Shown here: positions 3,850 through 57,618 of the stretch, in pieces | Layout of the letters: each line of letters opens with the position of its first letter | How positions within the stretch are numbered: position 1 is the stretch's first letter | From: an uncultured Clostridia bacterium | GTDB taxonomy: Bacteria; Bacillota; Clostridia; Oscillospirales; Acutalibacteraceae | Direction of reading: 5' to 3' | DNA: 64,000 nt | Assembly: GCA_947589365.1 (NCBI GenBank) | Contig: CANQAJ010000001.1 | Location: 11,605-75,604, forward strand | Made by a program: the position numbers and the translations under genes | Notes under the pieces: generated by a model | Database searches by the model: none | What the model was told of the DNA's origin: nothing | What the model saw: the letters and a program-made list of their open reading frames with translations, nothing else

Positions 3850-4347
3850 GTGAATACCGTCAAGCATTTTGAAATAATAAAAAAGTATGCACAGGATATA
3901 CTTGAGTCAAAAGGTATGGAAATAGAAAGGATCTGTGTCCAGCATGGTACATTCAGCGTGTTTGACCATTCTCTGTTTGTAACGTCAATGTGTATAAGAA
4001 TTTCAAAAAAATTCAAAATAAAGGTGGATGAGAGAGCATTGATCCGTGGTGCTATGCTGCATGACTATTTTCTTTATGATTGGCATGAGCCTTTGAAGAA
4101 AAACAGACTGCATGGCTTCAAGCATCCGAAAATTGCACTGGAGAATGCAATGAGGGAATATACTCTTGGCAGAATAGAGCAGAATATGATTTTGCGTCAT
4201 ATGTTCCCGCTTACATTGAAACCCCCGAAATATCGTGAGGCGGTTATTTTATGCATTTCAGATAAGCTGTGTGCAACGTATGAAACTGTCGGAGGATTGA
4301 AAAACAGAATTGTCAGAAAATTTAGGAGAGTTGATACAAATGCCTGA
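3850..4347 (+). CDS. HD-domain phosphohydrolase
   Basis: An H...HD signature is present (HSLFVTSMC ... GAMLHDYFLYDWH). The start is GTG, preceded by GAAGGTGG. Confidence 0.7.
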   Translation: MNTVKHFEIIKKYAQDILESKGMEIERICVQHGTFSVFDHSLFVTSMCIRISKKFKIKVDERALIRGAMLHDYFLYDWHEPLKKNRLHGFKHPKIALENAMREYTLGRIEQNMILRHMFPLTLKPPKYREAVILCISDKLCATYETVGGLKNRIVRKFRRVDTNA

Positions 4348-7563: not shown

Positions 7564-8907
7564 TCATTTTCCAAGTAAATTTTTATCGGCTTTATAATTT
7601 ACCTGTTTTGATAAAAGAATAAGTGCCGCAAGATTAGGTATAGCCATAAGTCCGTTAAGCGTATCGGAAATTTCCCATACAAGAGATATGCTCATTATAC
7701 TTCCTATATATGCTGTCAGTGCATAAACAAAACGATATACACCTATATATTTTCCTCCCGTAAGGTATTCAAGACTTTTTTCACCATAGTAGCACCATGA
7801 TACCAAAGTTGCAAATGCAAACAGAATTATAGAAAGCGAAATAAAAATTTTGCCTGTAATTCCGAGGGTTCCCTCAAATGCAGCTGTGCTTAAAGCTATT
7901 CCGTCAAGCGGAGATTTATCAAAACCGGATGTAATTATACAAAGAGCCATAAGTGTACATAGGACGATAGTATCCATAAATACTTGAAACATTCCCCACA
8001 TTCCCTGTTTATACGGATCGTCCGTATCGGCTGCCGCATGAACTATCGGAGAGCTTCCAAGACCTGCCTCATTAGAAAATACGCCTCTTGATATTCCGTA
8101 TTTTATTGCCCTTGCCATACCGTATCCCATAAAGCCACCGGCAACACAATGTAAATCAAAAGCTTCCGTAAAAATCTTAACAAAGGCAGCCGGTATCTCA
8201 CGGAAATTTATACCTATAACTATGACAGCGGCAAGAATATACAAAACTGCCATAGTAGGAACAAGCTTTTCGGTAAGTGCGGCTATGCGGTCTATGCCGC
8301 CCATAATTATAAGACCTACAGCAACCGCTATAATAATTCCGCTTATTTGCTGAGGAACACCGAATCCCTCACTTAAAGCACCTGCAACCGAATTTGCCTG
8401 CGTCATATTTCCCATACCGAGTGCAGCAACAGTACATATAACGGCAAAAACCACAGCCGCCCACTTACAATGAAGACCCTTTTCAATGTAATACATAGGT
8501 CCTCCAACATATTTACCGTTTCTTTTTTCTCTGTATTTCACTCCAAGCACATTTTCTGCAAATATAGTAGCCATACCAAAGACAGCGGCAACCCACATCC
8601 AGAATATTGCACCTGCTCCGCCAAGGCTTATCGCTCCGGCAACACCGACAATATTTCCTGTTCCTATCGCACCTGCAAGTGCCGTAGCCATTGCCTGAAA
8701 CGATGAAATTTTCCCTTTTCCCCTTTCCCCCTCATTTTTTTTGAAAATAGACATAAAGGTTTCTTTCCACCAGTATCCGAAATGCCTTATCTGAAAAAAT
8801 TTAAGTTTAAATGTATAGAATATACCGATACCTAAAAGTATACATAACATGAACGGTCCCCAGACAATACCATTGATAAATGAATTGATTTTTTCAACAG
8901 TTCCCAT
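7564..8907 (-). CDS. Alanine/glycine:cation symporter (AGCS family)
   Basis: The polytopic membrane protein carries the AGCS signature SSFQAMATALAGAIGTGNIVGVAGAI. Confidence 0.9.
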   Translation of the reverse strand: MGTVEKINSFINGIVWGPFMLCILLGIGIFYTFKLKFFQIRHFGYWWKETFMSIFKKNEGERGKGKISSFQAMATALAGAIGTGNIVGVAGAISLGGAGAIFWMWVAAVFGMATIFAENVLGVKYREKRNGKYVGGPMYYIEKGLHCKWAAVVFAVICTVAALGMGNMTQANSVAGALSEGFGVPQQISGIIIAVAVGLIIMGGIDRIAALTEKLVPTMAVLYILAAVIVIGINFREIPAAFVKIFTEAFDLHCVAGGFMGYGMARAIKYGISRGVFSNEAGLGSSPIVHAAADTDDPYKQGMWGMFQVFMDTIVLCTLMALCIITSGFDKSPLDGIALSTAAFEGTLGITGKIFISLSIILFAFATLVSWCYYGEKSLEYLTGGKYIGVYRFVYALTAYIGSIMSISLVWEISDTLNGLMAIPNLAALILLSKQVNYKADKNLLGK

Positions 8908-8958
8908 TTTAACACTTCACCCCATACATATATATAATTATTTAGGAATTAATATGAT

Positions 8959-8988
8959 TTGCAAACATATAAGCCTGTATGGTATAAT
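8959..8988 (+). promoter_or_regulatory. Sigma-A-type promoter for the Rsm22-like gene
   Basis: TTGCAA (8959-8964), an 18 nt spacer, then an extended -10 TGGTATAAT (TATAAT at 8983-8988). Confidence 0.5.
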
Positions 8989-9036
8989 TGATATACAGTT
9001 TATTACAATGTAATTATCAATGACGAGGTATAAAAA

Positions 9037-10005
9037 ATGGAATTTCCGTCCGAACTTAAGAACCAAATTGAATTAAATACATCACAATGGTCAATATCCG
9101 AATTGAAAAAGGCTTCGGATAACATAACAAAGAAATATAAAAATGAAAGCGGCAAGGGCAAAAGACTTATTACAGATAAACTTGAAGCGGCCGTTTATTC
9201 CGTGGTACGTATGCCTGCAACCTTTGCCGCCGTATCGGATGCAATTTTTCATACGCTTGAAATTGTCGGAGATAAATACGATATAAAAACACTTCTTGAT
9301 GTCGGAGCAGGTACGGGTGCCGCCGCATGGGCGGCGGATTGTCAGCTTGAGCTTGACGGGATAACCTGCTTAGAACGTGAAAAGGAAATGTCTGCCCTCG
9401 GCAGAGAATTTATGAAGTCGGGCAGTACAGTACTTAAAAATGCCGAATGGATAACCTATGATATTTCACGACCCGAGCTTCCCTGCAATGCCGACCTTGT
9501 AACAGCGGCATATGTCCTGAATGAATTGTCGGATTCGCAGCGTATTGATACAATAAAAAAGCTTTGGAAAGCTGCTAAAAAAGTACTTATTATCATAGAA
9601 CCCGGCACCCCGGACGGTTTTACCGGGCTTAGTACGGCAAGAGATATCCTGCTGAAGGACAATGCACATATTGCCGCTCCCTGTCCGCATGAAAATAAGT
9701 GCAGAATATCTTCCGGTGACTGGTGCCATTTTACTTCAAGGGTACAAAGAAGCAAACTGCATAAAATACTTAAGGGCGGCGATGCACCTTTTGAGGATGA
9801 AAAATATTCATATATGGCATTTGCCCGTACAAATACGGAAACAAACGGCTCAAGAATACTTCGTCACCCATATATAGGCAAGGGTAAAATATCAATGGAA
9901 TTATGCTCGGAAAATGAGAATACTACTGCGATTATAACAAAAAAGCAAGGAGAGCTTTTTAAAATTGCCAAAAAACTAAAATGCGGTGATATATTGCCAA
10001 AATAA
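9037..10005 (+). CDS. Rsm22-family SAM-dependent methyltransferase
   Basis: SAM motif I LLDVGAGTGAAAWAA and the C-terminal Cys cluster CPHENKCRISSGDWCHF match bacterial Rsm22 homologs. Confidence 0.7.
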   Translation: MEFPSELKNQIELNTSQWSISELKKASDNITKKYKNESGKGKRLITDKLEAAVYSVVRMPATFAAVSDAIFHTLEIVGDKYDIKTLLDVGAGTGAAAWAADCQLELDGITCLEREKEMSALGREFMKSGSTVLKNAEWITYDISRPELPCNADLVTAAYVLNELSDSQRIDTIKKLWKAAKKVLIIIEPGTPDGFTGLSTARDILLKDNAHIAAPCPHENKCRISSGDWCHFTSRVQRSKLHKILKGGDAPFEDEKYSYMAFARTNTETNGSRILRHPYIGKGKISMELCSENENTTAIITKKQGELFKIAKKLKCGDILPK

Positions 10006-49182: not shown

Positions 49183-50346
49183 ATGTCGGACAGAGATATA
49201 TACAGTAACAGTACGGATGATTACGGCGACGGTTATTATGCCGATGATACGGAAAAATACGATTCCTATATTACGGATGGTGAATATAATACAAACGGAT
49301 ATTATAATCAGAGCAGACAGCCTGTCGGAAACCGTAGAAGCAGGAAAAAGAAAGGAAAATTTAAAAAAATTGTAAAAATAATTCTTATCATATTGGCTGT
49401 TCTTATCCTTTTTACCGCAGTGTTTATGACGATTGTACTTGCGAGGGTTAATTATTCCTCTGAAAATCCCGATCATTCGCTCTCGGAAAATGACGGTATC
49501 AGCCTGAGAAGTGAAAGCGGCATTGAAAATATCTTTCTTTTCGGTGAAGACAACCACAGCGACGGGGAACACGGACGTGCCGACACAATGATACTTCTTA
49601 CATTGGATAAGAACCGTAATTTACTGAAACAGACATCATTTATGCGTGATATATATATTTATATCCCGGGTCATTATTACGCAAAGCTGAATGAAGCCTA
49701 TGCCATAGGCGGAGCAAAGCTTGCCGTTGAAACGATAGAGTATAATTTCGGCATTAAAGCAGACAAATATATGGTGGTGGATTTCAACAGTTTTACCGAT
49801 ATAGTGGATTCCCTCGGCGGAATTGACCTTGAGCTTACCTATGATGAAATTGAGTATATCAATTGGCAGAGTTACAGGAATAAGCAGGTTGACACGGAAA
49901 CGGAGATCGATCCCGACAGCTTTGAGTATGATTACAATGAAAATGATGAATATGTAGCAAACGTGCATCTGAACGGCAGACAGGCACTTTGGTATGCCCG
50001 TGACAGGGACAGTGCCGGGTCTGATTTCGACAGAACACAACGTCAGAGAATTGTTATTGACACCATTCTGTCAAAATTCAAAAATTCCGATCCGATCAGG
50101 CTGATGGCCGCATTATATTCCTCATCGGAGTATCTGACTACAAATATGGATGCATTCACGCTTTTAGGGGAAGGATTTGATCTTTTATCAGCCCTCAGAT
50201 ATGAACGCAGTGAGCATCGTGTTCCAACCGGTGATAATTATTATGATGTCTGGAATGAAACCGGAGAGGCTCTGCAAATAGATGATCAGGAGCTTGAAAA
50301 AGAAAGGCTTCATAATTTTATTTTCGATAATGTCACAGACCAATAG
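49183..50346 (+). CDS. LytR-CpsA-Psr (LCP) family protein (paralog)
   Basis: GRADTMILLTLD and GRQALWYARDR are present with a single TM helix. An AGGAGG RBS precedes the start. Confidence 0.85.
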   Translation: MSDRDIYSNSTDDYGDGYYADDTEKYDSYITDGEYNTNGYYNQSRQPVGNRRSRKKKGKFKKIVKIILIILAVLILFTAVFMTIVLARVNYSSENPDHSLSENDGISLRSESGIENIFLFGEDNHSDGEHGRADTMILLTLDKNRNLLKQTSFMRDIYIYIPGHYYAKLNEAYAIGGAKLAVETIEYNFGIKADKYMVVDFNSFTDIVDSLGGIDLELTYDEIEYINWQSYRNKQVDTETEIDPDSFEYDYNENDEYVANVHLNGRQALWYARDRDSAGSDFDRTQRQRIVIDTILSKFKNSDPIRLMAALYSSSEYLTTNMDAFTLLGEGFDLLSALRYERSEHRVPTGDNYYDVWNETGEALQIDDQELEKERLHNFIFDNVTDQ

Positions 50347-50384
50347 GCGGTGGGTTGACGAACAGTACTGTCGGCGGCAATCTG

Positions 50385-52949
50385 CTAAAGTCTCGGATCA
50401 ACAGGCTCACTTTCAAAGGCAAGAACACCGAAAACACATTCATGCACCCTGTAAAGAGGTTCATGCCTTACAAAACGCTCAAGTGCTTCCATACCGAGTG
50501 CAAATTCCTTAAGTGCAAGCGAACGCTTTCTCGTAAGAGAACGCCTTTTCAGCCTCTTAAGATTTTCCGACATAAGATATTCCGGACCGTATATTATGCG
50601 GAGATACTCCCTTCCACGGCATTTTACGGCGGGCTGTATTATCTCGTTATTATGCTTTGAAGTGAAAATCTCAGGCTTTACGACCATGCCCTCTCCGCCG
50701 CTTGATGTCAGTTCAAGCCACCGGTTGACACCTCTGTCAATACTGCTTTGGTCAAATACGTCAACGCATATATAATCCGTTGCAATAAATATAGGATCTA
50801 TATCCGTGCAGTACTTTTTTATTGTTTCCATATGCCATGTATGCGATCTGTCGGAAAATACATTATTTTTCGTTGCGAGTATATGGAAAGGAGCTATCTT
50901 AAGATCATTTACATCATTGACCTTCCAGCAATATTCACGATATGCATCAACATATTTTTCCAAGGCATCCTTCCTTTCGCTGAATCTGTCAAGAAGCTCC
51001 GGTATGCTGAAATTCTGCCCCGATGTATGCGGAGATACTTCAGATGTTTCTACGGTTATCATATTTGCCGTTTCAAGTGCTTCGACCGCTGCACTTAATG
51101 CATTTCTTCCGGCTCTTCCTACCGGTGCATACTGATGTGATAAAAGCTCCTGTGCCTTTTCCGACCACGGCATAAGCTCTGTATCAAGACATACCCAATC
51201 GGTTTCAAAATCATTCCAAAAACCGGATTTTGTCAGAACCTTGTCAAGCCTTACAAGTACCTGTTCTTCTACACCGTAATCATTAAAGAAATGTCTTCCT
51301 GTTCTTGTATAAATAATTCCCCTGCTTCCGTCCGTAACCCCGAAATTTTTTTTGGCAGACTCCGCAGTTTTGCATAATACCATAACCGCCCTTGAACCCA
51401 TATGTTTCTTTTCACACACTACATTCTGTATTCCCATGCTGCGGTAATATTCAAAAGCTTCAAGAGGATGTTCAAGATATCCGTCAAGACCGCTTGTTTT
51501 GCAGGGGGACATCGTGGGAGGAAGATATATCAGCCAATGAGGATCCGCTGCGTAACGTGACATAACCTCCAGTGCGGCTGCTGAATTATTTTCTTCTACC
51601 GCTATTGTGGGGATAAGTGAGGTATTAATATACATTTTTCCGCCGACATCTCCAAGCATCAGCATATCTCCTATATCCTCATTATTTTCTTTGAGCGGTA
51701 CGGGGGGTTCATAATACTGCTTAAGTGCTGACACACTTACTGTTTCTCTTTCCGGATAACGAAATGCGGTAAGCTTTCCGCCGAATACGCAGCCTGTATC
51801 AATACAATAGGTATTATTAAGTGCCTGTACCTCCGCCCGGGGAACATGACCGTATATTACTGTAGCTTTACCACGATAATCTGCTGCCCAGTTCAGTCGG
51901 ACAGGTAAACCGGATTCGTCCTTTTCTCCTGTGATATCTCCATAAAGGCAGAAGTTTCTTACACGTGACGAACCTCGTCCGATAAGCTTTTCATTTATTC
52001 CCGCATGAGCGATAACAAGCTTTCCGTCATCAAGCACATAATGACTCACCATATTATCAATAAATTTCCGTACTCTTTCCTTAAATTCGCTCCCCTCTGC
52101 TTCAAGCTGCTCTATGGTTTTCTCGCGTCCGTGCGTCAGTTGAACCTTTTTTCCGTTTAAATATTTAAGGAGCTTGATATCATGGTTTCCGGGTACCGCT
52201 ATGGCATTTCCCGCATCTGTCATATCCATTACAAGACGAAGTACATCCGTGTTTTTCGGTCCCCTGTCGCATAAATCGCCGAGGAAAGCCGCCTTTCTTC
52301 CGTCAGGGTGAAAGAATACTCCCTGTTCGTTTCTTATATACCCTGATTTTTCAAGGAGCATAACAAGCTCGTCATAACAGCCGTGTACATCCCCTATTAT
52401 ATCAAAAGGACCATGCTCATCCTTTCTGTTATTCCAAAGACCGGTGCGGACAATTTCAACATTATCAATGTCCTCCTGAGAATCAAGGACATATATAAAT
52501 CTGAATCCCTCACGCTTTAGGTGCTTTATGCTTCTGCGTAAATCCGAACAATGCTTTCTTATTACTCTTTCCGGGTAATTTTTTTTCGGATTAGCCGCAT
52601 TTCTTTTCAGGATCTCACTTTCGGGAAGATTGAGCACTATTGCAACAGAATGTACGTTTTGCTCATGTGCAAGCTCAATAACCTGTTTTCTTGCACTTTC
52701 TTGTAAATTTGTTGCGTCAATAACCGTTGTCTTCATAAGACCGAGTCTTTTATTTGCCGCATAGTACAGAAGGTCAAACGCCTCTGATGAAACCGATTGG
52801 TCGTTTTCATCATCGGATATCATAGCCCTGAAAAAATCCGAAGACAAAACCTCTGTCGGTAAAAAATATTTATTTGCAAAGGTTGTTTTTCCGCTTGAGG
52901 TTGCACCTATCATTGCTACAAGTGCAAATTCCGGTATTTCTATTCGCAT
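50385..52949 (-). CDS. pnkp: Polynucleotide kinase-phosphatase (kinase, metallophosphatase, ligase/adenylyltransferase) RNA repair enzyme
   Basis: The N-terminal P-loop is MIGATSSGKTTF, with SSDFFRAMISDDENDQS. The calcineurin-type phosphatase motifs GDVHGC, GDLCDRG and GNHD follow. The C-terminal nucleotidyltransferase domain carries the lysine motif EKKHMGSR. The domain order matches Clostridium thermocellum Pnkp. Confidence 0.9.
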   Translation of the reverse strand: MRIEIPEFALVAMIGATSSGKTTFANKYFLPTEVLSSDFFRAMISDDENDQSVSSEAFDLLYYAANKRLGLMKTTVIDATNLQESARKQVIELAHEQNVHSVAIVLNLPESEILKRNAANPKKNYPERVIRKHCSDLRRSIKHLKREGFRFIYVLDSQEDIDNVEIVRTGLWNNRKDEHGPFDIIGDVHGCYDELVMLLEKSGYIRNEQGVFFHPDGRKAAFLGDLCDRGPKNTDVLRLVMDMTDAGNAIAVPGNHDIKLLKYLNGKKVQLTHGREKTIEQLEAEGSEFKERVRKFIDNMVSHYVLDDGKLVIAHAGINEKLIGRGSSRVRNFCLYGDITGEKDESGLPVRLNWAADYRGKATVIYGHVPRAEVQALNNTYCIDTGCVFGGKLTAFRYPERETVSVSALKQYYEPPVPLKENNEDIGDMLMLGDVGGKMYINTSLIPTIAVEENNSAAALEVMSRYAADPHWLIYLPPTMSPCKTSGLDGYLEHPLEAFEYYRSMGIQNVVCEKKHMGSRAVMVLCKTAESAKKNFGVTDGSRGIIYTRTGRHFFNDYGVEEQVLVRLDKVLTKSGFWNDFETDWVCLDTELMPWSEKAQELLSHQYAPVGRAGRNALSAAVEALETANMITVETSEVSPHTSGQNFSIPELLDRFSERKDALEKYVDAYREYCWKVNDVNDLKIAPFHILATKNNVFSDRSHTWHMETIKKYCTDIDPIFIATDYICVDVFDQSSIDRGVNRWLELTSSGGEGMVVKPEIFTSKHNNEIIQPAVKCRGREYLRIIYGPEYLMSENLKRLKRRSLTRKRSLALKEFALGMEALERFVRHEPLYRVHECVFGVLAFESEPVDPRL

Positions 52950-54346
52950 TTTGTAAACACTCCCATCTGTGTCGGAGAACCGTATTTCTCGTCAACATCT
53001 CCGATATTGCTTATTTCAACACTATATCCGAATTTTTCGCATACCTGCTCACACCAAATTTTAAACTCCTCCCTTGTCCATTCAAAGCGGTGGTCGGTAT
53101 GTCTTAATTCTCCGTTTTCCATTGCCGCATAATTAACATTGTATTCCTTATTCGGTGTTGTAAGTATGACTGTGTGCGGCACCGCATATTCAAAGAGTAC
53201 CTTCTCTAAAGCCGGTATTCTTTGTATATCAATATGCTCTATGACCTCAATAACACACGCAGCATCAAATCCCCTGAATCTCTTGTCCCTGTATAGAAGT
53301 GATGCCTGCATTAATGTAAGCTTATTCTTTCTGTACGGCAACATTCTGTCATAATTAAGTCTTTCCTTTGCCCTTTCAAGCACCCTCACGCAGACATCCG
53401 CCGCTGTTATATTTTTTATCTGCTTTTCGGGCAGTAACATAGATGTCAGCTTACATTCACCGCAGCCTATGTCTATAACACTTTCTGCTCCGCTGTTCAG
53501 TACGGCATTTTTTACTGCCTCAAGCCTTAAGGTATTAAGAGGTATTTTTTTATTTGTATCATTTGCATTCCCTGTCGTTTCCTCATTTTCGGACATTAAT
53601 TCTTCCGAAGCACTTTCATCATCAGGGAGTCTGTTTATAAGCCTGTTTGCATAGCTTTTTCTCATGTCAAAATATCGTCTTATTATTTTATTCTTTGCCG
53701 GATGTGAATTAAGCCAGCCCTCACCATGCTTTATAAGCTTATCAATTTCATCCTCACTTATATAATAGTGCTTCTGTTTGTCCATAACGGGTATGAGTGT
53801 ATAAAGATGATTAAGCAGCTCGCAAACCCTCACCCTGCCTTTTATTGTGAGGTCAATATAACAGCTCTCTCCCCATTCGGGGAATTTTTCATCAAGCACT
53901 GATTTTTCAGTGCTTACCTCATATCCGAGCGGCTCGAATATTTCATAGACAAGCGATTCTTCCCCTCTTATCGGCAGCATATGTACAACAGCCTCCAAAT
54001 CAAGCGGCGTATCCGCAAGCTCCTGCCTTTTTGTACATTTACCCGACATCGCTGTTGAAAAAACCTTTGCTATCGCACTGCTCATAAAAGAAGATGCAAC
54101 GTAAGGTCTGTCGTTTACATAATCGAAAAGTCCCCCATCCCTCGAACCTTGCTTTCCTCTTGCAAGGTCAATAGGGTTGATATCAAGCAAAAGTGCCGCT
54201 GTTGTTCGGTTATCACTGATTTCCGTGTAAAACACATAGGCTTTTCCGAAATTAAGCTCGAAACATTGCGGACGATATGGATTTTTATGTAAAAGATATC
54301 CGAGATCCTGAGTATTCTTTCCCTTCATTGTTATTGTAAGAAGCAC
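52940..54346 (-). CDS. hen1: 3'-terminal RNA ribose 2'-O-methyltransferase Hen1
   Basis: The N-terminus MLLTITMKGKNTQDLGYLLHKNP is typical of bacterial Hen1. The C-terminal SAM methyltransferase motif is VIDIGCGECKL. The gene overlaps pnkp by 10 nt. Confidence 0.9.
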   Translation of the reverse strand: MLLTITMKGKNTQDLGYLLHKNPYRPQCFELNFGKAYVFYTEISDNRTTAALLLDINPIDLARGKQGSRDGGLFDYVNDRPYVASSFMSSAIAKVFSTAMSGKCTKRQELADTPLDLEAVVHMLPIRGEESLVYEIFEPLGYEVSTEKSVLDEKFPEWGESCYIDLTIKGRVRVCELLNHLYTLIPVMDKQKHYYISEDEIDKLIKHGEGWLNSHPAKNKIIRRYFDMRKSYANRLINRLPDDESASEELMSENEETTGNANDTNKKIPLNTLRLEAVKNAVLNSGAESVIDIGCGECKLTSMLLPEKQIKNITAADVCVRVLERAKERLNYDRMLPYRKNKLTLMQASLLYRDKRFRGFDAACVIEVIEHIDIQRIPALEKVLFEYAVPHTVILTTPNKEYNVNYAAMENGELRHTDHRFEWTREEFKIWCEQVCEKFGYSVEISNIGDVDEKYGSPTQMGVFTKCE

Positions 54347-54472
54347 ATATATTCCTCCTTATTTTCCGTTTTTGATTTTATGAATATATAATATCATATC
54401 GGATTATGAATATCATGGAAAAAATATTGCGAACGGTTTTTTAATATAATTATATAAAAGAAAATACGCACC

Positions 54473-55381
54473 CTAAAGTACGTACTTTTTCTGACTTATA
54501 AGTCTTTTCTTTATATAATTTACAAAGCTTCTCGGTTTTGTCACCTTTATAAGCGGTCCGAAAGACAAAACCCTTATTATAATTTCCGTTTCATCATTCT
54601 TGTCATAATATATTTTAACTCTGTAGTTATTATCATCAATCTTTTCAGTATATTTTTCATAGTGGGAAAAGTGCAGCATTACCCTTTCAAGGGAATTTCT
54701 TTCGTCCTTAAGCTCCAAGGTTACGGAAAACTTTTTGCTTTGATAATTTTCAGACGTTTTATTTTTGAACTCACCCTGATATATTTCACATGACCTTATC
54801 CTGCCGAGATTAACAACAGATCCGTTTCTGCTTCCTGTCACGATAAGTCGGAATTTATCATCCTTTTCCGAATATTCAAGATATTCCGGAATTGCAATTA
54901 TTTCTATATCATTGGATTTTTTGTTCAGCATATGTATATCAAGCGGCTCTGATCTTTCCAAGGCTTTTAGAATTATCTGAAAATTTTTTATATATTCCCC
55001 GTCATCATACGGATCACCGTCAGAATATTTATCAAACACATAATAATCATCAGGTGTAAAAAGCGGCTCAACTTCATCAAGTTGTATATCGCAGTTAAAA
55101 AGCTTTATTCTCGGGTCAAGTGAAACAGCTTTGAGCCACCGCTTTTCAAGCAGGTCTACAGGGATATCGGGTATGTTTTTTACAGGTGTACTTCCGTTTG
55201 ACATGAGTAATTGCCATTTCTGAGTTCTGAACGCATCTTCAATATTTATTATACTTTCCGAAAAAGCGTATTTCGCTACGATTTCACGAATTTTACCTTT
55301 ATCAACAGGATTTTTTACAGCCTCTGCAAGAATATGCGACACGGCATTAAAATATGTACTGTATATTTCATTAAAAATCAT
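54473..55381 (-). CDS. WYL-domain protein B (regulator-like, with a WCX-like C-terminus)
   Basis: The WYL-like core is PEYLEYSEKDDKFRLIVTGSRNGSVVNLGRIRSCEI. The family-typical N-terminus MIFNEIYSTYFNAVSHIL supports ATG 55381, which lies 4 nt after the upstream stop, over the ORF-track TTG at 55432. Confidence 0.65.
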   Translation of the reverse strand: MIFNEIYSTYFNAVSHILAEAVKNPVDKGKIREIVAKYAFSESIINIEDAFRTQKWQLLMSNGSTPVKNIPDIPVDLLEKRWLKAVSLDPRIKLFNCDIQLDEVEPLFTPDDYYVFDKYSDGDPYDDGEYIKNFQIILKALERSEPLDIHMLNKKSNDIEIIAIPEYLEYSEKDDKFRLIVTGSRNGSVVNLGRIRSCEIYQGEFKNKTSENYQSKKFSVTLELKDERNSLERVMLHFSHYEKYTEKIDDNNYRVKIYYDKNDETEIIIRVLSFGPLIKVTKPRSFVNYIKKRLISQKKYVL

Positions 55382-55385
55382 ATTC

Positions 55386-56618
55386 TTATAATTCAACTCC
55401 GTATATTTCATACATTCTGTTAAGATCATCAATGAATGTTTTTTCGATATCCTTATTGGAAAAATTTATATGTGTTATCCTACAGATAAATGTGCGTATC
55501 CATGTAAGCATCTCATTTGTATCATATACCTCTGCTCTGAATACCGCGTTGTTTTTATCAATTCTTTCAACTGTTCCGCACCGTTTTTCACGGACAAGAC
55601 GGTTATATATGTATTCTTCATCATCGGCAAAATTTATCGTAAATTCAACGGTTTCCGTCCTTCCTCCTTTACCCTGTGTGCTGACTCCCCACATATATTT
55701 ACGCATACCGCATAATAAATCTCTCAGCTTATCAAAATCCTCCGCCTCCGCAAAGCTCTTGATTTTCAGAATATAATCAAGCCGGATTGACGTTATTCTC
55801 TTTTTTGACCTTACATAGGCCATAAGATATTGTCTTCCGCTTTGCACACTGATAAATATTCTGAGGGGTACCACACGGATGCTTGTACTTTTTTCATTTT
55901 TTCTGCTGAACTTTTCTATTTCGATCTCTTTCTTTTCGTGCATAGCAGAAAAAAGCTCACACATAATTTCACTGTCAAGTGTGGAATTGATATAATGATG
56001 CTTGAAGGCAAAATTATCTTTTCCGTTTTCATATTTATCGAGCAAAAATGAGCCAATCACACCGCAGGGCAAAACCTCGGAAAAGTAATTGAGAACATCT
56101 CTGTTATTAAAGCAATAGTCGGGTGATTTTCCGTAATAAAGAGTTTTTCCGATTTTCCCGGTTACAAGAAGTCCGTTTTTAACATATTCATTAAGCTTTT
56201 TTCTTATTGTGGAACCGTCAAAGACCTTGGGATTATCAAAAAACGACAGATATTCCATATCAATCTTTTCCACTATTTCTATATTTGACATAGTTATATC
56301 AGGCGAATGAAGTATATCAAAAATTATAAAAAACAGAGTGATATCCCCATCTGTAAAGCTTTTTGCCTTCCATGCTTTGTACAGCGGATTATGACGTGAT
56401 ATACGGCTGTCAACGGATATAAAAAAGGTCTTCCCCTCGGTAGTTTTGTGATATCCCATATATTCCCCTATCCAGCTTTCAAGTCGGCGGCGTTCGTCAT
56501 CATAGGAACGAAGACTTTTCTTATTGTACTGTTCCCTGCTTTTAAATCCGTAGACATAAAATTCACGCATATAATCACGAATCTTATCAAAGCTTTTAAT
56601 CAATTCATTATATGACAT
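55386..56618 (-). CDS. WYL-domain protein A (wHTH, WYL, WCX-like)
   Basis: The N-terminus is YVYGFKSREQYNKKSLRSYDDERRRLESW. A wHTH-like segment follows (TIRKKLNEYVKNGLLV). The WYL core is VVPLRIFISVQSGRQYLMAYVRSKKRITSIRLDYI. Confidence 0.7.
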   Translation of the reverse strand: MSYNELIKSFDKIRDYMREFYVYGFKSREQYNKKSLRSYDDERRRLESWIGEYMGYHKTTEGKTFFISVDSRISRHNPLYKAWKAKSFTDGDITLFFIIFDILHSPDITMSNIEIVEKIDMEYLSFFDNPKVFDGSTIRKKLNEYVKNGLLVTGKIGKTLYYGKSPDYCFNNRDVLNYFSEVLPCGVIGSFLLDKYENGKDNFAFKHHYINSTLDSEIMCELFSAMHEKKEIEIEKFSRKNEKSTSIRVVPLRIFISVQSGRQYLMAYVRSKKRITSIRLDYILKIKSFAEAEDFDKLRDLLCGMRKYMWGVSTQGKGGRTETVEFTINFADDEEYIYNRLVREKRCGTVERIDKNNAVFRAEVYDTNEMLTWIRTFICRITHINFSNKDIEKTFIDDLNRMYEIYGVEL

Positions 56619-56651
56619 ATCACCATTCCTTTTAAATTAATCCGCAGTTTT

Positions 56652-56680
56652 ATTTTAATATAAATAATTTCTTATGTCAA
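56652..56680 (-). promoter_or_regulatory. Sigma-A-type promoter for the WYL-A gene
   Basis: On the minus strand: TTGACA, a 17 nt spacer, then TAAAAT. Confidence 0.55.
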
Positions 56681-56691
56681 CTTGATAAATA

Positions 56692-56738
56692 CCGAAAAGC
56701 CGCCGCACAAACGCAATAATCTGTAAGGTGCGGCGGCT
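56692..56738 (-). terminator. Rho-independent terminator after the lipoprotein gene
   Basis: On the minus strand an 11 bp GC-rich stem (agccgccgcac / gtgcggcggct) is followed by ttttcgg. Confidence 0.75.
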
Positions 56739-56769
56739 CATTCGATCAAATGAATAATTTATTTTAATT

Positions 56770-57618
56770 TTACGCTACATCATAGGTGTAGTAAATCTCC
56801 ATTACTTTTCCCGATTCCATTATAAAATCAAGATGTGTCTTGCTGTCTGCATTATAGGAGTACATAAAGTCGCTGTGTTCCGTTGCGGCAGAAAGACCAT
56901 AAGCTTTTTCTATATCGGCGGCTGTGCTTCCTACGGTTATTCCTTTTGTTGTAGAAGCAGCTGTTCCGGTTATCTGTATCATATAAACCTTCTCCGCTTC
57001 ATTATCCGTATAGGTCTGGATCATAAATCCGTTGTAATAATACATCTTATCATCTGCAACATTTATTGCAAGACAGCTCGGTGCCGTTTCAACAGAGCTT
57101 GCATTTCCTATTGAGGCAATTACATTCTGCATATTATCATGCAGGCTGATGGTATAATTATTATATGTGAAACTCATATCATCGGCAGAAAACTGTCCCA
57201 TAACAGGCTGTTCAACGGCGACAGAAGACTCGGGCTGCACCGATTCCGTCACGACAGGCTCGGCGGATGATTCCGTTACCACTGATTCTACAGACGATTC
57301 CGCAACCGATGATTCCTGCTTTGAGCTTTCCTCAACTGATGGTTCCGGCTTGGAGCTTTCTTCTTCCTTGCTGCTTTCCTCAACAGAGGATTCCGGTGCG
57401 GAGCTTTCCTTTTTATCGTCCTTCTTATCGTCCTTCTTATCGGATTCCTCTTTACTTGATTCTTCTTTACTGCTCTCCTGCACTGAGGATTCACTGCTCG
57501 TTTCGCTGCTTTCTATGGAAATCTTTCCCGAGCTTTCCTCCTCGGCATTGTTATCCGTGCAGGCAGCACAGAATAATGTCATGCAAGCCAGCAAAGCAAC
57601 TGCTATCATTCTTTTCAT
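56770..57618 (-). CDS. Secreted protein / probable lipoprotein with a Ser/Glu/Lys-rich linker and a C-terminal globular domain
   Basis: The signal peptide MKRMIAVALLACMTLFCAAC has Cys at positions 17 and 20. The low-complexity linker contains ESSKEESSKEESDKKDDKKDDKKESS. A C-terminal domain of about 140 aa has unknown function. Confidence 0.7.
   Translation of the reverse strand: MKRMIAVALLACMTLFCAACTDNNAEEESSGKISIESSETSSESSVQESSKEESSKEESDKKDDKKDDKKESSAPESSVEESSKEEESSKPEPSVEESSKQESSVAESSVESVVTESSAEPVVTESVQPESSVAVEQPVMGQFSADDMSFTYNNYTISLHDNMQNVIASIGNASSVETAPSCLAINVADDKMYYYNGFMIQTYTDNEAEKVYMIQITGTAASTTKGITVGSTAADIEKAYGLSAATEHSDFMYSYNADSKTHLDFIMESGKVMEIYYTYDVA

Follow-up and report, generated by a model that had tools for sequence, protein, structure and literature searches.

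We analysed a stretch of 64,000 nucleotides (nt) from an uncultured Clostridia bacterium (contig CANQAJ010000001.1), hereafter the window, in which two adjacent WYL-domain genes, WYL-A and WYL-B, precede the genes of the Hen1-Pnkp RNA-repair system on the minus strand. Our results suggest that WYL-A and WYL-B are the two subunits, sometimes fused in one chain, of a ligand-sensing factor with winged helix-turn-helix (wHTH), WYL and WCX domains, and that this factor controls the RNA-repair cassettes of Clostridia through a 23-nt box in the promoter of the cassette. We give this reading a probability of about 0.72; the pair is probably the missing RNA-repair switch in these Clostridia. The biochemistry of Hen1-Pnkp is established: broken RNA is healed, sealed and 2'-O-methylated. 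In the window, WYL-A (55386-56618, minus strand, 410 residues, ATG start) is followed 4 nt after its stop codon by WYL-B (54473-55381, 302 residues from the ATG at 55381, the open reading frame being listed as 54473-55432). An AT-rich spacer of 126 nt (54347-54472) separates it from the gene of Hen1, the 3'-terminal RNA ribose 2'-O-methyltransferase (52940-54346, 468 residues, GTG start at 54346), which overlaps by 10 nt that of Pnkp, the polynucleotide kinase-phosphatase-ligase (50385-52949, 854 residues). The list of open reading frames and the sequence agree with the initial annotation on the gene positions and their spacing. Hen1 matches TIGR04074 (1e-199) and Pfam Hen1_L (7e-101), and Pnkp matches TIGR04075 (E = 0, 1319 bits) as well as Pfam AAA_33, Metallophos and PNKP_ligase. 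Hence, a Hen1 and a trifunctional Pnkp (kinase, phosphatase and ligase) are encoded together as full-length equivalogs, which identifies the Pnkp/Hen1 system.

We classified the region after WYL-B in 100 loci, which correspond to 46 clusters at 90% identity, 40 of them informative, i.e. with enough downstream DNA. An RNA-repair cassette directly follows WYL-B in 39 of these 40 clusters. It consists of Hen1-Pnkp in 12 clusters, of RtcB, usually with the RlaP nucleotidyltransferase, in nine, of SPFH/Band-7 and RtcB (plus RlaP) in five, and of DUF2828/DUF7788 (plus RtcB) in 13. In the sole exception (locus L004), dockerin proteins and no repair genes are encoded downstream of a fused pair. The types of cargo are intermixed on the neighbour-joining tree of WYL-B, and the cassettes have therefore been repeatedly exchanged behind a conserved regulator. 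The initial annotation had linked the pair to Hen1-Pnkp. It is not dedicated to this system: the pair fronts at least four kinds of RNA-repair cassettes in gut and rumen Clostridia, among which the RtcB-based ones are the commoner.

The spacers between WYL-B and the cargo share a box. Their alignment gave the consensus GTTCGCA[AG]CTTTTTTTCC[AG]TGAT, common to all four types of cargo. An exhaustive Hamming scan of both strands of 1.06 Mb of related loci, allowing up to five mismatches, retrieved 96 copies, when about one is found in shuffled sequence. Most of them (92) lie directly after WYL-B, two precede cargo that inserted genes have displaced from the pair (L012 and L024) and two are upstream of WYL-A (L043 and L099); the box is absent from the locus without repair cargo (L004). 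Among 46 dereplicated copies, spanning all cargo types, 15 of the 23 positions are invariant. The copy in the window (GTTCGCAATATTTTTTCCATGAT, 54412-54434, minus strand) is the only one in its 64 kb at up to five mismatches. The box also has a fixed position in a promoter. A TAnAAT -10 hexamer starts and ends at +42 and +47 from the start of the box in the 46 dereplicated loci (frequencies of T 0.96, A 1.00 and T 0.98), and the 18 nt between the end of the box and this hexamer are constant across cargo types. The box thus extends from about -53 to -31, and its terminal bases make a -35 hexamer, [GA]TGATA, with four of six matches and a 17-nt spacer. In the window, this gives the Hen1-Pnkp promoter ATGATA-17-TGnTATTAT (54388-54416, minus strand), whose -35 element (ATGATA, 54411-54416) overlaps box positions 19-23 and whose -10 element (hexamer at 54388-54393) is extended, with TG before the hexamer. 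When the cargo is divergent from the regulator, as in an IMG/VR contig (L108), a perfect box faces the cargo. Since the box strictly co-occurs with the pair and keeps a fixed promoter geometry, we infer that WYL-A/B bind it and propose it as their candidate operator.

We also sampled Hen1-Pnkp from the side of Hen1, using six Clostridial contigs (64-68% identity in Hen1) and five plasmids. Of the Clostridial cassettes, that of L110 comes with both pair and box, that of L114 with a box but without a pair inside 4 kb, and the other four with neither. The five plasmid cassettes belong to other phyla (Alphaproteobacteria, Deinococcus, Nostoc, Leptospira and Rhodococcus), and no relative of WYL-A or WYL-B lies within 5 kb of them. 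The linkage proposed in the initial annotation is thus real in 12 dereplicated lineages, where the pair precedes Hen1-Pnkp, but it does not extend to five of the six Clostridial and five of the five plasmid cassettes. Judging from these loci, the module appears to be a lineage-restricted regulator that captured Hen1-Pnkp in some Clostridia. The cassettes without pair and box (4/6 and 5/5), together with the fused pair of L004 that has no repair genes downstream, are compatible with a fortuitous adjacency, in which the WYL genes would regulate something else. We find this extremely improbable in view of the RNA-repair cassettes that directly follow WYL-B in nearly all informative dereplicated lineages, and of a box that exceeds expectation about 100-fold and occurs only at the WYL-B junction or before displaced cargo. 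In addition, protein identities of 45-60% and different flanks argue against a single, recently spread mobile element.

WYL-A and WYL-B appear, from their distribution and gene organisation, to be a conserved two-part unit, i.e. an adjacent pair of the PafBC type with natural fusions. WYL-B is present in the 14 GTDB loci found with WYL-A (14/14), and WYL-A is present in all metagenome loci found via WYL-B that have enough upstream DNA, with the exception of L036. We rejected the latter as a case of WYL-B without WYL-A, as the locus looks like an assembly chimera. The two genes overlap by 4 nt (ATGA) in 32 loci, are separated by 0-5 nt in another 32, and overlap by 11 or 14 nt in six. One subclade encodes single-chain fusions of A and B (L004, L006/L008, L009 and L014) with linkers of 25-65 residues. 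The fused gene of L009 (3459-4700) has an in-frame stop at codon 39 of its WYL-A part and is either decaying or misassembled; the 246 nt of downstream DNA present contain no box. The initial annotation had suggested a PafBC-like heteromer. This idea is strengthened because the two genes strictly co-occur, have stop and start codons that overlap or adjoin and are naturally fused, and because the box is not palindromic. WYL-A and WYL-B would thus form a hetero-oligomer.

Sequence profiles identify the WYL proteins only in part. WYL-A passes the Pfam model of the WYL domain (PF13280, 25.5 bits for a cutoff of 21.8, 1.3e-5, residues 221-287). Both proteins match the WYL model of PADLOC (6e-13 for WYL-A and 3.2e-5 for WYL-B), and PADLOC gave nothing more specific than generic WYL or Cas3c-type models for either. 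WYL-B has no Pfam match even at E <= 10, neither protein has a helix-turn-helix match in Pfam, and the NCBIfam scan of both returned only noise. The window proteins are below the Pfam threshold for WCX, which a homologue of WYL-B (P0135, 56% identical) passes (PF25583, 1.2e-5). There are more than 6800 database homologues of WYL-A and more than 6100 of WYL-B. When the profile hidden Markov models of the families were compared with the sequences in the PDB, that of WYL-A had one marginal match, PafBC (E = 0.72, in the WYL domain only), and that of WYL-B had none; the hhalign probability of WYL-A against WYL-B was 7.6%. Because the sequence profiles scarcely reach solved structures, we predicted the structures of the monomers with AlphaFold2, from alignments of the database homologues, and compared them with Foldseek.

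In the predicted structures, both proteins have a WYL and WCX fold. The model of WYL-A (predicted local distance difference test, pLDDT, of 69) consists of an N-terminal extension (residues 1-90), a wHTH (about 91-165), a WYL domain (about 216-291) and a WCX domain (about 295-405). Residues 91-165 are arranged as helix-strand-helix-helix-wing with a pLDDT of 78-90, and their Foldseek matches are HlyU, MecI and ArsR-type wHTH regulators. The whole chain of WYL-A matches DriD (1e-10), PafBC (1.8e-10), BrxR and CapW (both about 2e-8) and WYL1 (6oaw, 1.7e-5). The model of WYL-B (pLDDT of 78) has a helical N-terminal domain (residues 1 to about 95), a divergent WYL domain (about 128-200) with the invariant motif EYSEKDDKFRL, and a WCX domain (about 218-299); it matches PafBC (7e-7), the C-terminal domain of DriD (2.6e-6) and WYL1 (6oaw, 4e-4). 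We found no recognisable wHTH in the WYL-B model and no matches of the wHTH type among its Foldseek results. Both models thus have a beta-barrel WYL domain, with WYL proteins as whole-chain matches, and a beta-alpha-beta-beta-alpha-beta-alpha C-terminal domain that identifies WCX, with the DriD C-terminal domain (WYL and WCX) aligned over about 200 columns. The E-values of the two models against PafBC, DriD, BrxR and CapW range from 1e-10 to 1e-6. The assignment of both proteins as WYL factors, by Pfam for WYL-A and by PADLOC and the WYL and WCX fold for WYL-B, is therefore sound, but a helix-turn-helix is predicted only in WYL-A. The N-terminal extension of WYL-A is among the most conserved parts of the protein (e.g. 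RSYDDERRRxESWL), yet its pLDDT is below 50. From its modelled order of elements (helix-helix-helix-strand-strand), it could be a second, degenerate winged helix or a docking site for WYL-B.

The box overlaps a terminator in most lineages. In 36 of the 46 dereplicated boxes, the last codons of WYL-B (encoding ...KSCGL and the stop) provide a complementary arm of 7-9 nt, located 5-11 nt upstream, and box positions 1-9 with the T-run make the 3' arm and the U-tract of the hairpin. These hairpins have energies of -16 to -18 kcal/mol and z-scores of -4 to -5. G.U pairs are present in 31 of the 36, and the A or G of box position 8 covaries with the T or C opposite. Most lineages thus seem to end the regulator transcript where the promoter of the cargo begins. 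In the window, a weak hairpin with a T-rich run lies at the WYL-B stop codon (54461-54488, minus strand, 12 pairs of which 3 GC). Its fold has a z-score of -1.9, when most orthologous loci have a strong terminator there; it may be a leaky terminator, with some read-through into hen1-pnkp being plausible. The spacer, initially described as lacking a convincing terminator, is not featureless, as it holds the hairpin, the box and a promoter of its own. Because of these three elements, Hen1-Pnkp in the window is probably a separately controlled transcription unit and not simply co-transcribed with the WYL genes. As a general design, the single operon initially envisaged is contradicted by the conserved promoter and box of the cargo and by the terminator that follows WYL-B in most lineages.

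The overlap of box and terminator raises the question of whether the box is conserved as RNA. The WYL proteins would then be RNA-binding accessory or scaffold subunits, like WYL1, or antiterminators acting at the hairpin at the end of WYL-B. The matches of both models to WYL1 (1.7e-5 and 4e-4) and the lack of a recognisable DNA-binding domain in WYL-B would fit, and so would the stable terminator hairpin, with G.U pairs and a single covarying position, to which the box belongs in 36 of 46 copies. We regard this as very unlikely. WYL-A has a confidently modelled wHTH that matches DNA-binding regulators, and a pair that accompanies four mechanistically unrelated cassettes is more readily a regulator than a physical subunit. 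Conservation of the box is just as high in the 10 of 46 copies that lack the complementary arm (among them the window clade and the displaced, divergent and upstream-of-WYL-A copies), so a sequence-specific constraint must also act at the level of DNA. It is also kept in the divergent L108 and in L114, where the pair is not upstream, and it is always 18 nt from the -10 hexamer. We therefore rejected a role of the box as terminator arm only: copies without arm, divergent and in trans exist.

Some boxes lie away from the WYL-B junction. L109 has a second box upstream of WYL-A. Upstream of WYL-A, orthologous loci have strong sigma-A-like sites, and the shared box is found there only in L043, L099 and L109. 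Two of the loci sampled from Hen1 have extra boxes with a -10 hexamer at the usual distance, at 8038-8060 in L110, before a gene at 8142-9293, and at 3906-3928 and 8905-8927 in L114. The gene behind the extra box of L110, which is downstream of Pnkp and encodes 383 residues, has no match in Pfam, NCBIfam or the PDB, and the genes behind the second boxes in both L110 and L114 belong to no detectable family. As L114 has no pair within 4 kb, its boxes hint at a regulon served in trans.

These observations suggest the following mechanism. The pair would be made from its own sigma-A promoter with translational coupling, both of which are visible in the sequence, and WYL-A and WYL-B would associate via their WCX domains. 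The one clear wHTH, that of WYL-A, would bind the non-palindromic 23-bp box, which occupies about -53 to -31 in the cargo promoter. The WYL domains would bind a nucleic-acid signal of RNA damage, most plausibly RNA fragments that end in a 2',3'-cyclic phosphate or a 5'-OH, e.g. tRNA halves, and the factor would then turn on the promoter in the manner of DriD and PafBC. The output would be Hen1-Pnkp in the window, and RtcB-RlaP, SPFH-RtcB or the Ro-like DUF2828 with tRNA-like RNAs and RtcB in its relatives. In most lineages, the 5' half of the box and the T-run would double as terminator of the regulator genes and insulate the cargo from read-through.

Several observations weigh against control by a WYL-A/B factor acting at the box. 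The sequence similarity to solved WYL factors is marginal, the profile alignment of A with B is weak, and the WYL-A model is only moderately confident, with residues 1-90 below a pLDDT of 50. Box positions 1-16 are terminator arm and U-tract in 36 of the 46 copies, so that box conservation could partly result from RNA structure and from the overlapping C-terminal codons of WYL-B. The window box itself has three mismatches to the consensus, and pair and box are both missing in four of the six Clostridial cassettes sampled through Hen1. Finally, the -35 (4/6) and -10 (5-6/6) hexamers, 17 nt apart, may make a self-sufficient promoter, which would favour a repressor.

The latter point bears on the sign of the regulation. 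With the same regulator and the same box, the pair could be a repressor of the CapW/BrxR type that blocks the -35 element of a promoter active by itself and comes off once the damage signal is bound by its WYL domains. The cargo promoter has a reasonable -35 element, a near-consensus -10 element and a 17-nt spacer (with the -10 extended in the window), the box covers the -35 hexamer, and the regulator genes have a strong promoter of their own. Boxes before WYL-A, as in L043, L099 and L109, would give the negative autoregulation that is typical of repressors. WYL proteins have been described as repressors of defence pathways (PMC11888443), and CapW is a wHTH-WYL-WCX repressor that senses single-stranded DNA (ssDNA) (PMC11662680). 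On the other hand, the box is coupled to the -10 hexamer at an exact position and reaches to about -53, as for the activators DriD and PafBC, which are also nearest in fold and subunit organisation, and a terminator directly upstream suggests that expression of the cargo depends fully on its promoter being switched on. We favour activation because the sites of DriD and PafBC also overlap the -35 element at a fixed distance from the -10. Repression is the less probable sign, although derepression of the CapW/BrxR type is nearly as likely as activation.

The nature of the ligand is a further issue. The idea of an RNA-fragment ligand comes from the analogy with RtcR and with WYL proteins that bind ssDNA or single-stranded RNA (ssRNA). 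The Aravind laboratory has proposed that CARF and WYL transcription factors, including regulators of RNA repair, respond to RNAs with cyclic-phosphate ends (PMC9503650, PMC7824862). Taken to its full extent, our proposal would make the heteromeric WYL sensor the Firmicute counterpart of RtcR, a dedicated receptor that recognises the ends of broken RNA with two non-equivalent WYL domains and activates, via one operator, whichever repair cassette is present. We put this forward tentatively, as somewhat short of an even bet; such a sensor may also reach further box-bearing genes in trans. It is less probable, and in our view unlikely, that the pair acts at the box but senses ssDNA, DNA damage or phage, with RNA repair as one output of that response. 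The biochemically defined ligands of WYL transcription factors in the abstracts searched are ssDNA (DriD and CapW) and, in one case, c-di-GMP; Salmonella rtcBA is expressed in the SOS response through prophage genes (PMC9879122); and some loci adjoin defence genes (AbiE and Schlafen-like genes in L017-L019, SMODS-SLATT in L110). This should be set against the cargo, which is solely concerned with RNA repair or RNA quality control in 39 of 40 clusters, with no DNA-repair or abortive-infection effector under the box among the 40. The neighbours in the window are cell-envelope genes and not a defence island, and binding of ssRNA by WYL domains is possible, as it was reported for WYL1.

The boundaries of the block in the window are clear. 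The WYL-A/WYL-B unit is preceded by the promoter TTGACA-17-TAAAAT (56652-56680, minus strand, 11 of 12 matches), the top sigma-70-like site of the promoter scan within 50000-57000. Further upstream, the intrinsic terminator of the preceding gene (56770-57618) spans 56692-56738 on the minus strand, with a 10-bp GC stem (GCCGCCGCAC/GTGCGGCGGC) followed by TTTT. Our hairpin scan listed loops of up to 8 nt, and this terminator, whose loop is longer, was read from the sequence instead; it is predicted to insulate the block from the upstream gene. Hen1 has a ribosome-binding site AAGGAGG at 54354-54360 (minus strand), and Pnkp meets a convergent gene of the LCP family (49183-50346, plus strand, from the list of open reading frames and Pfam). 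Terminator, promoter and convergent gene had all been correctly placed by the initial annotation. The flanks encode cell-envelope functions according to Pfam (AlgX/DHHW, MBOAT and two LytR-CpsA-Psr genes), and the neighbourhood is not a defence island. Near-identical copies of the locus occur in a metagenome-assembled genome of rabbit-gut Clostridia (L001, 98%) and in a hare-gut assembly (L023).

Other loci differ in context. In a Saccharofermentanales genome (L017-L019; e.g. L017 4520-5945 and 11543-14868), the pair and DUF2828 lie between the toxin-antitoxin genes AbiEi/AbiEii and two SLFN_AlbA_2/HATPase_c_4 genes, a defence-island-like context unlike that of the window. Directly upstream of the WYL-A/B pair, L110 (1-1720) has one more WYL-domain gene, ahead of SMODS and SLATT_4 genes; this is a CBASS-like module with a CapW-type regulator, so that two WYL-controlled systems are adjacent. 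In L012 (5805-10333), about 3.6 kb of unrelated genes (an Rrf2 regulator, ferredoxin/PNPOx, a Macro domain and SIR2) separate WYL-B from the box and DUF2828. This insertion may not be functionally neutral because Macro and SIR2 are NAD/ADP-ribose enzymes. In the lineage of L015 (10258-11013) and L016 (1209-2464), RlaP has an in-frame stop and reads KTL-stop-LLYKSNP where relatives have KTLRLLHKSNP. This lineage is very common in the gut (its WYL-B protein, P0184, is in 257 collection blocks), and one assembly also has a split RtcB. The stop could reflect a pseudogene, recoding or a sequencing error. We rejected RlaP as a conserved split gene: this was an artefact of using the gene calls of L015, with its in-frame stop, as queries.

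Some spacers between the box and the cargo contain further elements. DUF2828/DUF7788 proteins are presumably Ro/TROVE-vWA-like. Their spacers have one to five repeated modules, AAAGGCRC..ACAGCAA ... GGYGCCTTGT, between the box promoter and the gene (L049 9505-9575 and 9714-9785; L074 9045-9118 and 9227-9299; L020 8049-8124; L075 2806-2878; L099 3080-3142; L108 5880-6500, minus strand). Several modules embed a tRNA-like element called as tRNA by ARAGORN or Rfam, and from their sequence they look like YrlA-type, tRNA-mimicking Y RNAs that would be transcribed from the box promoter, before the genes of the Ro-like protein and RtcB. In the SPFH/Band-7 and RtcB loci, the spacer after the box has about 420-610 nt and is partly conserved between loci (L096 8913-9387; L061 8914-9366; L067 4064-4617; L011 2077-2548). 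Rfam and ARAGORN found no named family in the SPFH-type and other spacers, and tRNA-like elements only in those of the DUF2828 type. SPFH systems are reportedly associated, according to Burroughs and Aravind, with a 'novel tRNA-like molecule', and the SPFH-type spacer may be that molecule.

The association of WYL genes with RNA repair has probably been noted before, because Burroughs & Aravind 2016 is the source that later papers from the Aravind laboratory give for WYL factors in the context of RNA repair (PMC9503650, PMC7824862). Our literature search found no paper linking WYL with Hen1 or Pnkp, none on the regulation or induction of Pnkp/Hen1, and no description of this box; the search did not cover Burroughs & Aravind 2016. 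The statement in the initial annotation that no regulator of Pnkp/Hen1 had been described thus agrees with the literature searched, but must be qualified, as regulation of RNA-repair pathways by WYL transcription factors is already asserted in the later papers (PMC9503650). Four things appear to be new here: the hetero-pair of A and B, of which only one has a wHTH, together with its fused forms; the exchange of cassettes behind this pair; the 23-bp box and the way in which promoter and terminator are arranged around it; and the hint of a trans regulon.

For at least four RNA-repair systems of Clostridia that abound in the gut and the rumen, the module provides a testable regulator, a defined candidate operator and a promoter. 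The biochemistry of Pnkp/Hen1 is known in detail, but its regulation is not described in the literature we searched; the same applies to RtcB systems outside the RtcR/sigma-54 paradigm. The control of Pnkp/Hen1 and RtcB in Firmicutes now becomes a directly testable question. Control by WYL-A/B would extend WYL sensors from the control of DNA damage and phage defence to that of RNA damage. If the pair does play the part of RtcR in Firmicutes, no RNA-sensing WYL transcription factor and no regulator of Pnkp/Hen1 would have been known before it. In addition, the natural hetero-pair and its fused form are material to study how two non-identical WYL domains cooperate, and the box can be used for regulon mining and for reporters of RNA damage.

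We finally compared the pair with known systems. RtcR, the CARF-AAA+ sigma-54 activator of rtcBA or rsr-yrlBA-rtcBA, is a functional analogue: it senses a ligand and is encoded next to an RNA-repair operon, to which a Ro-like protein, tRNA-like Y RNAs and RtcB may belong. The DUF2828 and RtcB loci with Y-RNA-like modules resemble the layout of Salmonella rsr-yrlBA-rtcBA. WYL-A and WYL-B are not of the RtcR type: they have no CARF, AAA+ or Sigma54_activat match in Pfam or NCBIfam, and the cargo promoter is of the sigma-70 type, unlike the sigma-54 type used by RtcR. WYL1, the accessory protein of Cas13d, is likewise a WYL protein of gut Clostridia, and its structure (6oaw) is matched by both models. 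It has a ribbon-helix-helix N-terminal domain, binds ssRNA and acts post-transcriptionally on Cas13d, whereas WYL-A has a wHTH and goes with a box in a promoter. No cas gene was found among the annotated neighbours in the window and related loci, where CRISPR arrays were not scanned for. CapW and BrxR, which repress CBASS, BREX and further defence islands, have the same fold class, lie directly upstream of swappable stress or conflict cargo and recur before diverse systems. They differ in being single-gene homodimers acting on anti-phage effectors, whereas here the regulator is a two-gene or fused hetero-pair and the cargo is RNA repair. Within this group of proteins, ssDNA is sensed by CapW and DriD and Cas13d is modulated by WYL1.

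The closest parallels are DriD and, as the nearest analogue, PafBC. DriD, a wHTH-3HB-WYL-WCX activator of Caulobacter, is the best Foldseek match of WYL-A (1e-10), and its sites have the same geometry as the box. Its site is palindromic. It is a homodimer acting at promoters that lack a -35 element, while the box is asymmetric and includes a -35-like hexamer with four of six matches. The DriD site overlaps the -35 region at a fixed distance from the -10, and PafBC is its closest structural relative (PMC13004042). PafBC is a heterodimer, naturally fused in Arthrobacter, that recognises the non-palindromic RecA-NDp motif (PMC6789036). As proposed for our loci, two adjacent paralogous genes with WYL and WCX domains act together; both systems have fused forms (Arthrobacter there; L004, L008 and L014 here), the target motif is non-palindromic, and PafBC is the top or near-top structural match of both WYL-A and WYL-B. 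The two systems differ in that PafB and PafC both carry a helix-turn-helix, found here only in WYL-A, and in the additional conserved N-terminal extension of 90 residues in WYL-A. Moreover, the actinobacterial PafBC activates a LexA-independent DNA-damage regulon, whose repair genes are dispersed, and lies near proteasome genes, whereas here the proposed targets are adjacent RNA-repair cassettes of Clostridia. The similarity of E = 0.72 over the WYL domain, the lack of a wHTH in WYL-B and the differences in taxon, neighbours and motif show that WYL-A and WYL-B are not orthologues of PafB and PafC. The pair would work like PafBC and DriD but is not a member of those families.

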